From Desulfobacterales bacterium (GTDB lineage: Bacteria > Desulfobacterota > Desulfobacteria > Desulfobacterales > Desulfosalsimonadaceae): a stretch of DNA of 64,000 nt. The first letter of the stretch is position 1; every line of letters starts with the position of its first letter. Shown here piece after piece: positions 14,344 through 21,669 of this stretch. Below the pieces are notes generated by a model that saw nothing but the letters and a program-made list of their open reading frames with translations, ran no database searches and had not been told where the DNA came from. A program made the position numbers and the translations under genes. The DNA lies in NCBI GenBank assembly GCA_046543065.1, contig JBKHAE010000002.1, positions 7,144 through 71,143 of the forward strand. Direction: 5' to 3'.

Positions 14344-14589
14344 CTATCCCGTCCGGTCCGAGAGATAGGCCAGCATGCCTGAGAGCGTCTTTAACCTGCC
14401 GTAATCCGCCTCCGGTATTTCAACCCCTAATTTTTCATGCAGGGCGATGATGACGTTTAAGAAATCGAATGAATCGATATCCAGCGCCCGTCGCAAATCC
14501 TCATCCGGGGAAACGGCATTGGGATCCATCTCAGGGGCCATCTCCTGCAGGGTATCAAGCACAATTGCCTTCAGTTGCTCTTCCCTCAT
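14344..14589 (-). CDS. Acyl/peptidyl carrier protein (phosphopantetheine-binding), paralog 1
   Basis: 81 aa with the Ser attachment motif [16 protein letters not shown] overlap with the E2 stop. Paralogous to 21418-21669. Confidence 0.75.
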
Positions 14590-15803
14590 AACTGTCCCGC
14601 CTCCTGAAGATACCGGTTAAGGTTGTGCAAAAACTGGGCGCCGGTGCGGCCGTCGCTGGCCCGGTGATCCCCCGAGAGGGTGGCACTCACCACCGGACGG
14701 ACGCCGATCATGCCGTTTTCCACCCAGGGCTGGTCCATGATCCGCCCAAAGCTGACCAGGGCCACCTGCGGCGGATAGATGACGCCATAGGTGGTCTCGA
14801 CCCCCAGATCCCCCAAATTGGTGAGCGTGACCGTGGCATCGGTCATCTCCGAACCCCGCAGCCGGCCGGACCGGGTGCGGGCGATCAGATCCCGCATATC
14901 GGCCATGAGCTCATCCAGGCTTTTGTGGTCGACGCCGTGGATGGCCGGGGCGATTAATCCACCCTGCCGAAGGGCGATAGCAAATCCGACATGCACCGCT
15001 TCACTGGGTTGATGCCGGTCCTCCATCCAGTAGCCGTTAAGCGCGGGTATATCCGTGAGCGCCAGCGCCGTGGCCTTAAGCAGAAGCACCACAGGCAGGA
15101 GCCGATCCTTGACAGAGCGCTTCTGGTTCTCCGCTGTCAGCCAGTTCATGGCCCTGCTTAAATCAATCCGGGTTTCAAGGTAGTAGTGGGGAATCTCGCG
15201 GTTGGAGCGGCCCATGGCAGCGGCAATGGCCCGGCGCATGCCAAGCTGGAAATCCGACACCTCTTTGCCGGCAGGGGCGGCTTTTTTCTCCGGTGTCCCG
15301 CCTGCCGCCCTTTGCACATCCGCGAGGCTGATTACCCCGTCCGGGCCGGTGGGCTGAATGCCAGTCAGATCCAGACCAAGCTCGGCCGCCTTTTTGCGCG
15401 CAGCCGGTGACACCTTCAGGCGTTCTTCTGCTTCGGTTGGCCGGGCGGCTGGTGCTTCCGGTTTGGCCTTCGATGGTTTAACAGATTCCTCCCCCGCCAG
15501 CGTCTCCGCAGCACGAGACAAAGCTTCCGAAGAAGAGGCAGTTGCCGGGGTTTCCGATACCCCTTGCGCTTCGGTGCGGATCAGCGCAATCACCTCCCCC
15601 ACCGGCACCTCGTCGCCCGGCTCGGCAACCAGCTTTTCCACCACCCCGTCCATAAACACTTCAATTTCAATGATGCCCTTTTCGGTTTCCACCTCGGCAA
15701 TAATGTCGCCGCGCCTCACCCGGTCGTCGGGTTTTACCTTCCACTCGACCAGAGTCCCCTTTTTCATATCAGCGCCCAGACTGGGCATGCAAAAGTCAGC
15801 CAT
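14586..15803 (-). CDS. Dihydrolipoamide acyltransferase (E2) of a 2-oxoacid/acetoin dehydrogenase complex
   Basis: Lipoyl domain ([13 protein letters not shown]), subunit-binding domain ([16 protein letters not shown]...GPDGVI) and catalytic motif SGDHRASDG. Confidence 0.9.
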
Positions 15804-16797
15804 TGCCTGCCACCATCCTTTTTACCCTCGAGACAATCGTTTCCGCCTGCGGCAGCGCGGCCTGCTCCAGATGCCCTGCATAGGGCATGGGCACTTCAGC
15901 CCCGCAGATCCGTGCCACAGGCGCGTCCAAGTCATAAAGCGCGTTTTCCGTGATCCGCGCGCTGACCTCCGCAGATATCCCCCCGCTGCACCAGCCGTCA
16001 TCCACGATGATCGCCCGGTGCGTCCGGCTGATGGATGCCAAAAAGGTTTGATCATCAAGGGGGCGAAGGGTGCGAAGATCGATCACTTCCATTTCTATCC
16101 CCTCGGCAGCCAGTTGATCCGCCGCAGCCAGGGCCTTGTATAAACCCGCCCCATAAGTTATAGAGGTTATGTCCCCACCCGATCGCATGATGCGGGCCCG
16201 GTCAATATCCACGGCATCCAAATCGGCAGGGATCTCCCCCTCCATGCCGTAAAGGGTGTTATTTTCGAAAATGAGCACGGGGTCGGGATCTGCCAGCGCG
16301 GTGGAAAGCATGCCACGGGCATCTGAGATTGTTGCCGGGGTGAGCACTTTAATGCCCGGTATATGGGCATACCACCCTTCGAGGCTGTGCGAATGCTGGG
16401 CTGCCAGCTGTTTGCCGCCCCCGGTCGCCATGCGGATCACCACCGGCACATTGAACTGACCGCCGGACATGTGCAGATAGGCGGAGGCATTATTTAATAT
16501 CTGGTCTGCCGCCAGCAGACTGAAGTTCACTGTCATGATCTCGACAATCGGCCGCATTCCGCCAAGTGCCGCGCCGATGCCGGCGCCCACAAAGGCGGAT
16601 TCCGACAGCGGCGTATCCCGGATCCGCTCCGGGCCGAACTCCGCCAGAAGCCCCTTGGAAACCGCAAAACAGCCGCCGTACCGGCCCACATCCTCGCCCA
16701 TCAGAAAAATGCGCGGGTCCTTGCGCAGGGCCGCCCCGATCGCCTCCCGCATGGCCTCCCGGTAGGTGAACTTAACAGGGGAGTGCAGGGTGTTCAT
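15796..16797 (-). CDS. 2-oxoacid/acetoin dehydrogenase E1 component, beta subunit
   Basis: Transketolase-like pyrimidine-binding and C-terminal domains ([33 protein letters not shown]). The start at 16797 forms an ATGA overlap with the E1alpha stop. Confidence 0.9.
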
Positions 16798-19849: not shown

Positions 19850-20578
19850 ATGCAGTGCGTGGTTTATGAACTCGGCCGGATTGAATACAGCCAATGCTAT
19901 CAGCTGCAGCGGTATCTGCAGCTCAAGCGGATCAATGGGGACATCCCAGACGTTTTGCTGATCCTCGAACACCCGCCCACCCTTACCATCGGAAAAACGG
20001 GGCGGATAGAAAATGTGCTGGTGCCGGTGAGCCGGCTTAAGCAGGAGGGAATTTCTTTAATTCCTTCGGACCGGGGCGGTGATGCCACTTATCACGGGCC
20101 CGGCCAGATGGTAGCCTATCCGATTTTATCCCTCCATGACAGGGGCCGGGATATACCCCGCTATGTCCGCAATCTTGAAGAAGTGGCCATACGAACACTA
20201 AAAGACTTTGGCATTATTGCTGCAAGGGATGATTATCATCCAGGGGTATGGATAGGCACGGCAGAAATCGCCGCCATCGGCCTGAGCATTAAAAAATGGG
20301 TGACTATGCACGGACTGGCCCTTAACGTGGCCCCGGAGATGGCGCATTATGCATTTATCAATCCATGCGGTTTTAAGGAAAGGAAAGCCGCATCAATGGC
20401 CGATGTGCTCGGCCGCGAGATCCCCATAGAGGGCGTGATCTCAGCGTTTATCAATCATTTTTCAGATATATTCGACATCGCCGTCACATTAGGCGACCAT
20501 ACCGAGCTATGGAGAAGCTATGAAGAAAACCTTCCCGAAATGGATCAAATGGCGAGCGCCCGACCCGGCGATGCTTAA
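19850..20578 (+). CDS. lipB: Lipoyl(octanoyl) transferase
   Basis: LLILEHPPTLTIGKTG, RGGDATYHGPGQ and the conserved region KxxxHG (KKWVTMHGLALNV). The start was chosen at MQCVVYEL. Confidence 0.85.
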   Translation: MQCVVYELGRIEYSQCYQLQRYLQLKRINGDIPDVLLILEHPPTLTIGKTGRIENVLVPVSRLKQEGISLIPSDRGGDATYHGPGQMVAYPILSLHDRGRDIPRYVRNLEEVAIRTLKDFGIIAARDDYHPGVWIGTAEIAAIGLSIKKWVTMHGLALNVAPEMAHYAFINPCGFKERKAASMADVLGREIPIEGVISAFINHFSDIFDIAVTLGDHTELWRSYEENLPEMDQMASARPGDA

Positions 20579-21428
20579 AAGCATGCAGGCGCTTTTAAAG
20601 GACTTGAATCTCCATACCATCTGTGAAAGCGCCCAGTGTCCGAATATGGGTTTTTGCTTTGCCCGTAAGACCGCTACATTTTTAATACTTGGCGATGTCT
20701 GCACCAGAAGCTGCACTTTTTGCGGGGTCAAAAAAGGGATTCCCCTGCCTGTTGATCAAAATGAGCCCGCCGCGGTAACCGAGGCGGTCCGCAGGCTCGG
20801 TTTAAAATACGCGGTCATCACCTCGGTTACCCGGGATGACCTTTCAGATGGGGGCGCCTCCCAATTCGCAGAGGTAATCAGCCGACTTCATGAACTGGAT
20901 ACGGACATTACCGTTGAAGTCTTGATTCCCGACTTTAAAGGCTCATTTGACGCCCTGCGGTTTGTCGCAAAGGCCGGACCGCAAGTGATCAACCACAATA
21001 TTGAAACCATCCGCCGGCTGTATCCGAATGTCAGGCCGGGGGCCGTTTATGAGCGGTCGTTGGCCCTGCTTGCCGACATTAAGCACATTCAGCCGGATAT
21101 TATCACCAAGTCCGGAATGATGCTGGGCCTTGGGGAGTCGGCCGAAGAAGTGATCCAGGCAATGCGGGATTTACGAGATGCTGATTGTGATCTTCTGACC
21201 ATGGGGCAGTATCTGCAGCCCTCTCCAACGCATCACGAGATAAAATCATTCGTATCCCCGGAGAGGTTTTCAGAATATGCATCCATGGCCCTTGAGATGG
21301 GCTTTAAAGGGGCGGCCGCAGCGCCGCTGGTCAGAAGCTCATTTAAGGCGGATGAGCTGTATCAAACAGCTGTAAGAATGACGCATTATCCCAAAACCGA
21401 AACCAAAGGCCAGATCCATGCTGAATGA
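20520..21428 (+). CDS. lipA: Lipoyl synthase (radical SAM)
   Basis: N-terminal cluster CESAQCPNMGFC, radical-SAM CTRSCTFCGV, and C-terminal RSS(F/Y) (LVRSSFKA). Confidence 0.9.
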   Translation: MKKTFPKWIKWRAPDPAMLKSMQALLKDLNLHTICESAQCPNMGFCFARKTATFLILGDVCTRSCTFCGVKKGIPLPVDQNEPAAVTEAVRRLGLKYAVITSVTRDDLSDGGASQFAEVISRLHELDTDITVEVLIPDFKGSFDALRFVAKAGPQVINHNIETIRRLYPNVRPGAVYERSLALLADIKHIQPDIITKSGMMLGLGESAEEVIQAMRDLRDADCDLLTMGQYLQPSPTHHEIKSFVSPERFSEYASMALEMGFKGAAAAPLVRSSFKADELYQTAVRMTHYPKTETKGQIHAE

Positions 21429-21669
21429 AAATGAAATGAAAACGGCGGTCCTGGAGATTATCGGCAGAATCGCGCCGGAGGCGGGCATTAAAAACCTTGA
21501 TCCCGGAAAACGGCTGCGCGATCAGTTTGATTTTGATTCCGTTGATTTTATGGATTTTGCGGCTGCCCTGCAGGATAGGCTGGATGTCAAGATCCCGGAA
21601 GCGGACTATCCGGAACTGGCGACCCTAAACAGCTGTATCGCCTATCTGCGATCGAAAATGAACGCATAA
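21418..21669 (+). CDS. Acyl/peptidyl carrier protein (phosphopantetheine-binding), paralog 2
   Basis: 83 aa with the motif FDFDSVDFMDFA. It shares ...IPEADY...L.TL......YL... with 14344-14589 and overlaps the lipA stop. Confidence 0.75.
   Translation: MLNENEMKTAVLEIIGRIAPEAGIKNLDPGKRLRDQFDFDSVDFMDFAAALQDRLDVKIPEADYPELATLNSCIAYLRSKMNA

Follow-up and report, generated by a model that had tools for sequence, protein, structure and literature searches.

The stretch of DNA analysed here, 64,000 nucleotides of contig JBKHAE010000002.1 from a Desulfobacterales bacterium (referred to as the window, meaning the whole 64-kb stretch), carries a five-gene operon that encodes an AcsA-type, AMP-forming acetate ligase, the two subunits of a pyruvate dehydrogenase (PDH)-type E1 (E1alpha and E1beta), a dihydrolipoyl acyltransferase (E2) and a small acyl carrier protein (ACP1), in that order. 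This arrangement is conserved far beyond chance in other bacteria, and the key unit is the five-gene operon, not the whole 7.3 kb (14344-21669) that was originally singled out. The components of this cassette are all of known kinds, and their combination with a carrier protein is one for which no description was found in the literature searched. The reading favoured here, which is held tentatively, is that ACP1 represents a dedicated acetyl carrier protein that serves the ligase (AcsA), the PDH-type E2 and Pat-type protein acetyltransferases, with dihydrolipoamide dehydrogenase (E3) acting in trans. Gene identities were assigned from an open reading frame (ORF) listing and from profile searches (Pfam, NCBIfam), which bore out all of the identities named in a preliminary description made from the sequence alone. 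The genes of the operon are:

14344-14589, minus strand: ACP1, an 81-aa carrier protein (Pfam PP-binding)
14586-15803, minus strand: E2 dihydrolipoyl acyltransferase (Pfam Biotin_lipoyl, PF00364; E3_binding, PF02817; 2-oxoacid_dh, PF00198)
15796-16797, minus strand: E1beta, 333 aa, with its ATG at 16797 according to the public gene call (Transket_pyr and Transketolase_C)
16794-17801, minus strand: E1alpha, thiamine diphosphate (ThDP)-binding and of PDH type (Pfam E1_dh)
17798-19576, minus strand: AcsA-type AMP-forming acetate ligase, gene 1 of the cassette, 592 aa (AMP-binding and AMP-binding_C)

Relatives of the carrier protein are encoded in at least 518 species, as judged from a scan of one genome per species, and the 80 best loci drawn from these species were compared with the window proteins by tblastn. 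Loci with at least 5.5 kb of sequence upstream of the ACP gene were treated as informative (n=59), and the order ligase-E1alpha-E1beta-E2-ACP was retained in 57 of them; the two exceptions were a fragmented ligase call and a locus with another architecture (L057). The possibility, entertained in the preliminary description, that the ligase-E1-E2-carrier protein synteny is unique to this genome is at variance with this count. The 80 best loci include members of the Desulfobacterota, Nitrospirota, Chloroflexota and Alpha-, Beta- and Gammaproteobacteria, of the Verrucomicrobiota (Prosthecobacter, Chthoniobacteraceae) and of the Acidobacteriota (Bryobacteraceae, Solibacteraceae, Vicinamibacterales), as well as the cyanobacterium Pelatocladus, and the closest relative in the species collection is a metagenome-assembled genome of the Desulfosalsimonadaceae (L008). 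Median identity to the window proteins was 66% for the ligase, 67% for E1alpha, 72% for E1beta, 53% for E2 and 56% for ACP, with cross-phylum ranges of 56-80% for the ligase and E1 subunits and of 47-94% for E2 and ACP.

The compact spacing of the genes is also conserved. In the window, the overlaps are 4 nt for ligase/E1alpha, 4 nt for E1alpha/E1beta, 8 nt for E1beta/E2 and 4 nt for E2/ACP1, in agreement with the 4-8 nt reported previously for the five minus-strand genes, and similar junctions recur across related loci. Median gaps were about -4 to -8 nt at three junctions, the median for the ligase/E1alpha junction (-37 nt) being a less precise estimate than the others, and gaps of 20 nt or less were present in 55-66 loci per junction. 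The cassette probably spreads by horizontal transfer. The GC content of the cassette (14344-19576) is 0.593, with a GC content at third codon positions of ~0.70, compared with 0.525 for the remaining window, which is weakly consistent with a separate, horizontal origin; the GC content of the adjacent lipB, lipA and ACP2 genes (0.50-0.52) is below that of the cassette. Public annotation labels the parts of the cassette as an ordinary PDH, a ligase and an ACP, and in Desulfobulbus alkaliphilus the RefSeq names are PDH E1alpha, 'alpha-ketoacid dehydrogenase subunit beta', 'dihydrolipoamide acetyltransferase family protein' and LipB. Literature searches turned up neither an account of the cassette or of an acetate:ACP ligase nor any report linking a carrier protein to Acs/Pat, and to our knowledge carrier proteins are not involved in PDH, in acetyl-CoA synthetase or in Pat-type lysine acetylation.

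The E1 and E2 proteins appear to be of PDH type, with pyruvate as the predicted substrate of E1. E1alpha scored 452.1 bits against TIGR03182 (the PDH_E1_alph_y equivalog, cut-off 393.85), and its best solved relative is human PDH E1alpha (253 bits), other 2-oxoacid E1 proteins reaching at most 159 bits. E1beta scored 405.9 bits against NF006667 (cut-off 321). The best solved relatives of E2 are mitochondrial-type PDH E2 proteins, although E2 scored only 238.8 bits against the PDH E2 equivalog TIGR01349 (cut-off 445) and is below the cut-off for all other E2 equivalogs too; the AcoC-type model NF011457 covers only the lipoyl end of the protein (77.9 bits, cut-off 307). Among orthologues of the cassette E2, the lipoyl lysine is present in 37 of 37 and the DHRxxDG motif in 60 of 62, and the peripheral-subunit-binding domain is retained. 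The cassette therefore resembles the PDH complexes with heterotetrameric E1 (mitochondrial, alphaproteobacterial and Gram-positive, pdhA-pdhB-pdhC-lpd) in that both E1 subunits pass PDH models, in that E2 combines a single lipoyl domain with a peripheral-subunit-binding domain and a catalytic domain bearing DHRxxDG, and in that human or other mitochondrial PDH components are the best solved relatives of E1alpha and E2. It differs from them in lacking E3, in having the ligase first and a dedicated carrier protein last, and in the sub-threshold score of E2. Many of the hosts, by their named taxa, should own a housekeeping PDH, which would make the cassette an accessory copy.

No E3 redox-disulfide motif was present in the six frames of the window, and tblastn of the window with an E. 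coli Lpd sequence gave no match; the same query detects a 42%-identical E3 in one related locus (L029), so the query works. The earlier claim that E3 is encoded neither in the cluster nor elsewhere in the window was thus confirmed by both searches. E3 was also absent from the ~165 related loci examined, with the sole exception of L029, in which it is the neighbour of another, 27%-identical E2 on the opposite strand and belongs to a separate, sucB/pdhC-like 2-oxoacid dehydrogenase operon. An E3 hidden in the window or in the related loci was rejected, the motif scan and tblastn having returned only that separate operon. In the preliminary description, re-oxidation of the lipoyl arm was presented as a puzzle for a strict anaerobe; the lack of E3 stands, but it is common to every copy of the cassette and not special to this organism. 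Many cassette hosts belong to taxa known as aerobes, which are expected to have a housekeeping Lpd. Since E3 is missing from the cassette generally, since many hosts are from aerobic taxa and since E2 keeps its subunit-binding domain, the simplest account is that E3 would be supplied in trans, from elsewhere in the genome.

The ligase passes the NCBIfam model for acetate--CoA ligase (NF003313; 912.6 bits, cut-off 729) and scores 558 bits to PDB 9g79, a solved AcsA of 572 aa, and 351 bits to S. enterica Acs. Alignment to 2p2f places the retained acetate-pocket residues V310, T311, V386 and W414 (S. enterica Acs numbering) in the motifs GWVTG, SVGEP and NWWQTE(TG), and the catalytic A10 lysine (K609) is kept in the motif PKNKAGK. 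Of 57 cassette ligases, 50-52 have kept the pocket residues and the catalytic lysine, and such an acetate-sized pocket indicates that the substrate is acetate, or at most propionate, and not octanoate. At the position of the A8-motif arginine (R526 in S. enterica Acs), the window ligase has Met (TSGHMVG), and Met or Leu is found in all 77 of the five-gene ligases examined and in 16 of the 17 ligases encoded directly before ACP; the arginine is present in the solved acetyl-CoA synthetases 9g79, 8rpk and 2p2f and in a second ligase of the acetyl-CoA synthetase family in the window. The A8 variant (HMVG or HLIG) co-varies with the helix-II motif of ACP (DSFDFL or DSMD[WF]L), in three-gene and five-gene forms of the locus alike, a pattern that fits co-evolution of ligase and ACP. 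The second ligase (51638-53650, 670 aa, ACAS_N and AMP-binding) is long and looks acetoacetyl-CoA-synthetase-like, and a carboxyltransferase is encoded in the same stretch (54798-56399); the cassette ligase is therefore not the sole short-chain acid ligase in the window.

ACP1 belongs to a large family of its own, with 830 word-index matches and, for the family profile, 1114 clusters (50% identity) at E<=1e-10. It is 39% identical to ACP2, a second carrier protein in the window, and both are above the cut-off for PF00550. Against AcpP equivalogs, ACP1 reached at most 39.2 bits and ACP2 at most 34.4 bits, below every cut-off (65-146), and the cassette ACP is covered by no curated NCBIfam model. 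The attachment serine, S40 in the motif DxDS40xDF, is invariant across the family, and this invariance of the phosphopantetheine serine and its motif argues that the thiol arm matters. The AlphaFold2 model of ACP1 (pLDDT 91) is a four-helix bundle with Ser40 at the start of helix II (residues 40-54), and a Foldseek search with this model gave TM-scores of 0.78-0.90 to solved ACPs, the closest being AcpM and mitochondrial ACPs. Comparison of the ACP profile with PDB sequences returned only generic ACPs of the fatty acid synthase type, at 45 bits or less.

The partners of this carrier protein family can be read from its gene neighbourhoods, for which the features adjoining the cassette in the window are also relevant:

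13898-14329, minus strand: OsmC-like two-cysteine protein (Pfam OsmC), 14 nt downstream of ACP1
19577-19798, no strand: divergent intergenic region between the ligase and lipB, 222 bp
19799-20578, plus strand: lipB octanoyltransferase (Pfam LplA-B_cat)
20520-21428, plus strand: lipA lipoyl synthase (Radical_SAM and LIAS_N)
21418-21669, plus strand: ACP2, a paralogue of ACP1 (PP-binding), convergent with Pat
21753-24449, minus strand: Pat-type protein lysine acetyltransferase (CoA_binding_2, Succ_CoA_lig, ATP-grasp_5, Acetyltransf_1/3)

In most loci, the gene to which ACP is translationally coupled is that of E2 or the ligase rather than that of an acetyltransferase of the GNAT family, and start-stop coupling of E2 and ACP is near-universal. 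A metagenome scan with the ACP subtype of L057 placed ACP directly after E2 in ~40 loci and a Pat-type GNAT directly downstream of ACP in ~26 loci, mostly in the order ligase-ACP-GNAT; in one locus (L122) the E2-ACP and ACP-GNAT arrangements lie side by side. Direct partnership of an AcsA-type ligase with ACP is seen in L057, in L088 and in the L091-L109 series. L057, from Azonexus, has the three-gene form ligase-ACP-GNAT, with a 4-nt overlap of the ligase and ACP genes. This form is common in Rhodocyclaceae-like contigs, and its trios contain no lipoyl protein. The GNAT of the three-gene form (175 aa) shares 35% identity over 173 aa with its counterpart in the window Pat, a protein whose Pfam architecture consists of an NDP-forming acyl-CoA-synthetase-like region followed by a C-terminal GNAT. 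Close homologues of the 175-aa GNAT are found in the cultured species Dechloromonas agitata, D. denitrificans and Ferribacterium limneticum and also in Candidatus Accumulibacter, those of Dechloromonas and Ferribacterium being ~80-90% identical when compared by GNAT sequence alone.

ACP2-type proteins, with 78 matches, show a similar association. In L088 and L090, the closest relatives of ACP2 lie beside Pat and an AcsA-type ligase, without E1 or E2, and the ligase and Pat of these loci are 66-69% and 65-73% identical, respectively, to the window proteins; a SIR2 gene is located near the ACP2-type locus of L088. Close relatives of ACP2 are also found beside Pat and an AcsA-type ligase in L021 and L027, and a more distant relative is part of a cluster with ketoacyl synthase (KAS), ketoreductase (KR) and dehydratase genes (L089). 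A role for ACP2 as a carrier dedicated to LipA was rejected on the basis of the adjacency of its relatives to Pat and AcsA in L088 and L090. Pat is encoded near members of the ACP family in L021, L027, L046, L075, L088, L090 and L117, and the profile matches include three apparent fusions of ACP with a Pat-type GNAT (P0278, P0309, P0311) and one natural ACP::OsmC fusion (P0283). Across the family, the link of ACP to E2 is no stronger than its links to the ligase and to Pat-type GNATs. In D. alkaliphilus (L037, 11048-13978), downstream of the cassette and lipB come genes for a 976-aa Aas-like protein, which combines ACP, AMP-binding and PlsC-acyltransferase regions, and for a FadD-like ligase.

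A dedicated acetyl carrier protein would bring these associations together, because every conserved partner of ACP handles activated acetyl, whether as acetyl-dihydrolipoyl, as acetyl-AMP or as an acetyl thioester. In the proposed mechanism, E1 would decarboxylate pyruvate and reductively acetylate the lipoyl arm of E2, and the ligase would form acetyl-AMP from acetate, so that the E2 route and the ligase route would both end in an acetyl thioester. The phosphopantetheine thiol of ACP would be the dedicated partner of E2 and the ligase, either accepting or reporting acetyl, and E2 and/or the ligase would load ACP with acetyl. Pat-type GNATs could then use acetyl-ACP as donor or respond to the acylation state of ACP; both this use or signalling and the loading of ACP are inferred from the company that the genes keep. 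Pat-type GNATs elsewhere carry sensor domains and acetylate the catalytic lysine of AMP-forming acetyl-CoA synthetases, switching them off. In the Desulfobacterales genome, lipB and lipA would be an add-on for lipoylation of E2, and other add-ons in this genome would be the second, paralogous carrier protein beside Pat, the OsmC-like thiol peroxidase and Usp stress genes. A bolder version, in which E2 (from pyruvate) and the ligase (from acetate) directly maintain on ACP a small CoA-independent pool of acetyl thioester that is read or consumed by Pat-type GNATs acetylating lysines, including the catalytic lysine of the ligase itself, and which would amount to a self-contained acetyl-sensing and acetyl-donating circuit across phyla, is considered unlikely.

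Transfer from E2 to a carrier protein was one of two readings offered in the preliminary description, and it is a plausible one, which fits the near-universal coupling of E2 and ACP. Its presentation there as an output undescribed for this enzyme family was overtaken by a precedent. In the quinocarcin and naphthyridinomycin pathways (QncN/QncL/QncM) and the scleric acid pathway (SclQ1-4), a lipoyl-bound C2 (glycolyl) unit is passed to an ACP and not to CoA (PMC6335953). The cassette is like the Qnc and Scl systems in gene content, with genes for a ThDP-dependent E1-type protein, a lipoyl E2-type protein and a small dedicated ACP placed together. The Qnc and Scl systems, however, take a glycolaldehyde unit from a ketose phosphate and lie inside actinomycete gene clusters for non-ribosomal peptide synthetases (NRPS) or natural products, whereas the cassette has a PDH-type E1 and an acetate ligase and spans many phyla. 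No NRPS or polyketide synthase (PKS) genes were present in the neighbourhood of the cassette in the window, in the annotations of L003-L007 and L037 or among the recurrent neighbours.

Several observations weigh against a dedicated acetyl carrier protein. The ligase shares ~55% identity (estimated from the alignment) with a genuine acetyl-CoA synthetase, the 9g79 AcsA, and it also has basic residues where S. enterica Acs binds the CoA phosphate through R194 and R584; CoA may still be its acceptor. No single residue dictates CoA binding, as Reger et al. reportedly concluded in 2007. Loss of the A8 arginine was considered as proof of ACP use and dropped, since ANL-family enzymes that depend on carrier proteins also keep this arginine, and the co-variation of the A8 motif with helix II of ACP may reflect shared ancestry alone. 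E2 shows no visible change pointing to a switch of acceptor. A consumer of acetyl-ACP is not encoded in most five-gene loci, which are without a GNAT within 10 kb. Two of the three ACP::GNAT fusions look frameshifted at the C-terminus. In addition, several of the nearest folds in the PDB are structural subunits of large assemblies (complex I, MmpL5, EmbAB), which makes a non-carrier role for ACP realistic.

Other known systems share parts of the cassette. Control of AcsA by Pat (AcuA) and a deacetylase is similar in that the cassette ligase is of AcsA type, with a lysine in a PKxxxGK motif, and in that Pat or a Pat-type GNAT adjoins it in the window and in many loci; it is different in that ACP is a constant companion of the ligase here and is apparently fused to the GNAT in some sequences, and we know of no carrier protein in the described AcsA/Pat system. 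The acetoin dehydrogenase system (acoABCL) also combines E1alpha and E1beta with a lipoyl E2, and Aco systems sometimes have a private lipoyl synthase (acoS of Pelobacter carbinolicus) and a physiological link to acetyl-CoA synthetase. Unlike the cassette, Aco clusters include an E3 gene (acoL) but lack one for a carrier protein, and the cassette E1alpha is of the PDH type. Pairs of ANL ligases and carrier proteins (DltA/DltC, acyl-ACP synthetases) have an adenylate-forming ligase gene beside that of a small carrier protein, as does the cassette, but the cassette ligase falls within the acetyl-CoA synthetase family proper and its acyl group would be plain acetate. SbzI and the GNAT-ACP pairs that load PKS resemble the three-gene form, in which the GNAT lies directly downstream of the carrier protein, and SbzI is a characterised GNAT that takes an acyl group from a carrier protein (PMC11685415).

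The rival explanations differ in the role that is left to ACP. In the main rival, an ordinary acetyl-CoA factory, E1/E2 and AcsA would use free CoA and ACP would be without flux, having a regulatory or structural function, for instance as an in-trans sensor domain for Pat-type acetyltransferases or as a scaffold on the E2 core. Other Pat-type enzymes carry cNMP-binding, ACT or NDP-forming-synthetase-like sensor domains, and the ACP::GNAT fusions and the adjacency of ACP and Pat match this habit. The passing of curated acetate--CoA ligase and PDH models by the ligase and E1 subunits, the basic residues kept at CoA-phosphate ligand positions, the RefSeq naming of orthologues as plain PDH components and the structural subunits among the nearest ACP folds all point the same way. 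Such a factory is nevertheless regarded as somewhat unlikely, given the invariant phosphopantetheine serine and motif, the coupling of ACP to E2 or the ligase rather than to a GNAT in most loci and the absence of a GNAT within 10 kb in most five-gene loci. It has also to be considered whether E1/E2 might be an Aco-like system that cleaves acetoin, a diketone or another 2-oxoacid, with Acs recovering acetate from the released aldehyde. Acetyl-CoA synthetase is genetically linked to acetoin catabolism elsewhere (acoE in Ralstonia, acsA-acuABC in Bacillus), the substrate specificity of E1 is not readable from sequence here, and the shortfall of E2 against the PDH E2 equivalog (238.8 bits against 445) would be compatible with this role. 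This is nonetheless improbable: E1alpha exceeds the cut-off of TIGR03182, a model designed to distinguish PDH E1 from the acetoin and branched-chain types, its best solved relative is human PDH E1alpha by 253 bits to at most 159 for other 2-oxoacid E1 proteins, and neither aldehyde dehydrogenase nor acoL/acoX-type genes recur in the loci.

The remaining two explanations are centred on genes that adjoin the cassette in the Desulfobacterota. According to the other reading of the preliminary description, the ligase loads octanoate on the private ACP of the cluster, LipB moves octanoyl to E2 and LipA adds sulfur. Both lipoylation genes are bona fide and adjacent in the window, with LipB scoring 174.8 bits against NF010925 (cut-off 155) and 147.7 bits against TIGR00214 (cut-off 83.55) and LipA scoring 371.1 bits against TIGR00510 (cut-off 310.25). 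Besides the window, lipB adjoins the cassette in L026, L031, L037, L062, L063, L065 and L079. It is divergent and upstream, with lipA, in the window and L031 (L010 has lipA only, upstream), and directly follows ACP in the other six loci (Desulfobulbales, Geobacter or Desulfuromonadaceae), a position that speaks for such a circuit. A donor other than AcpP is conceivable, for LipB is reported to recognise chiefly the C8-pantetheine arm (PMC9307952). The circuit is disfavoured and highly improbable, and a ligase that loads octanoate was rejected, on the acetate pocket (V-T, V, W-W) conserved in the ligases, the passing of NF003313 and the gene context. ACP belongs to the cassette with or without lipB and lipA, which adjoin it only in Desulfobacterota loci and in no locus of other phyla, where more than 50 cassette loci are without either gene within 10 kb; furthermore, the ligase-ACP-GNAT trios contain no lipoyl protein, and ACP2 travels with Pat and AcsA as its conserved neighbours rather than with LipA. 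Most simply, these anaerobes would carry lipoylation genes with the cassette because E2 needs them, and housekeeping lipoylation encoded elsewhere would suffice in other hosts. In this Desulfobacterales lineage, E1/E2 could also function free of E3 if the OsmC-like thiol peroxidase re-oxidised the dihydrolipoyl arm, giving a pyruvate-driven peroxide reductase, an explanation that is very improbable but compatible with the others. The two-cysteine OsmC-like gene lies 14 nt after ACP1, a position shared by L008 and L010, an ACP::OsmC fusion exists and Usp stress genes are nearby. Peroxidases of the Ohr/OsmC group are known to depend on lipoyl, and in M. tuberculosis the reduction of peroxide is linked to the E2 protein DlaT. 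Known lipoyl-dependent peroxidase systems, however, use Lpd to reduce lipoyl and not to oxidise it, so that the direction is not established; OsmC accompanies the cassette in only 3 of ~80 genome loci (window, L008, L010), and the window protein falls well short of the NCBIfam peroxiredoxin cut-offs (score 40, cut-off 166). The adjacency and the fusion hint at a link of the carrier protein or lipoyl arm to thiol-peroxidase chemistry.

The coordinates confirm that the five-gene operon is divergent from lipB-lipA-ACP2. The plus-strand overlaps described previously hold for lipB/lipA (59 nt when the longest ORFs are taken), but the 11-nt overlap of lipA/ACP2 becomes a 7-nt gap if ACP2 begins at Met7, the start used in the 77-aa database entry P0121. 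By direct reading, the divergent intergenic region contains at 19713-19724 a perfect 12-bp palindrome, CTTGTTAACAAG, which is a candidate operator; an inverted-repeat tool gave no output for this region, although the palindrome is present. An equivalent of CTTGTTAACAAG is not common to other loci. An operator common to the cassette ligases was rejected, since enumeration of palindromes in 87 upstream regions gave none in more than 4 loci, TTGAT-N4-ATCAA being found in 4 of them. Within the window region, a promoter scan gave 8 matches compared with 7.7 in shuffled sequence, and a terminator scan gave 17 compared with 12.8 (sd 2.9), at most a modest excess.

The wider surroundings of the cassette are suggestive of stress. 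Recurrent neighbours are Usp (13 loci), Hsp20 (10 loci), a phosphoribosyltransferase (6 loci), a DHH/DHHA2 phosphoesterase (5 loci) and the large subunit of [NiFe]-hydrogenase (5 loci). Stress and dormancy gene sets of this sort are known from the DosR regulons of actinobacteria, and by analogy this stress/hypoxia island context suggests that the cassette may be used under stress or oxygen limitation. In the window, three consecutive tandem-Usp genes and a gene for a CBS-domain protein are located at 26259-30253, within 8 kb of the cluster. Ketopantoate reductase (PanE/ApbA), which catalyses a step of pantothenate synthesis, is encoded at 30500-31516, 9 kb from the two carrier proteins, which may be coincidence. 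On the other side of the cluster, a glycyl-radical enzyme of 1004 aa (558-4514; PFL-like and Gly_radical) is accompanied by a radical-SAM activase, and a TetR-regulated cluster for acyl-CoA metabolism (4891-13419; Pfam assignments from public gene calls) contains genes for a thiolase, a nitroreductase-family protein, a ferredoxin-domain-fused AMP-binding ligase, two acyl-CoA dehydrogenases and an ABHD18-like hydrolase.

The cassette thus adds a conserved carrier protein linked to PDH, acetyl-CoA synthetase and Pat-type enzymes in hundreds of species. The question of its function is within reach of standard biochemistry, as the five-gene form is present in a cultured host, Desulfobulbus alkaliphilus DSM 24258. 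If ACP does not take acetyl, it would instead represent an accessory subunit not previously known for PDH-like complexes. If ACP does take acetyl, the PDH-type E2 would have an output that is new for such enzymes beyond natural-product biosynthesis, the ligase would be the first acetate:ACP ligase, and protein acetylation might have a new acetyl donor or sensor in acetyl-ACP.

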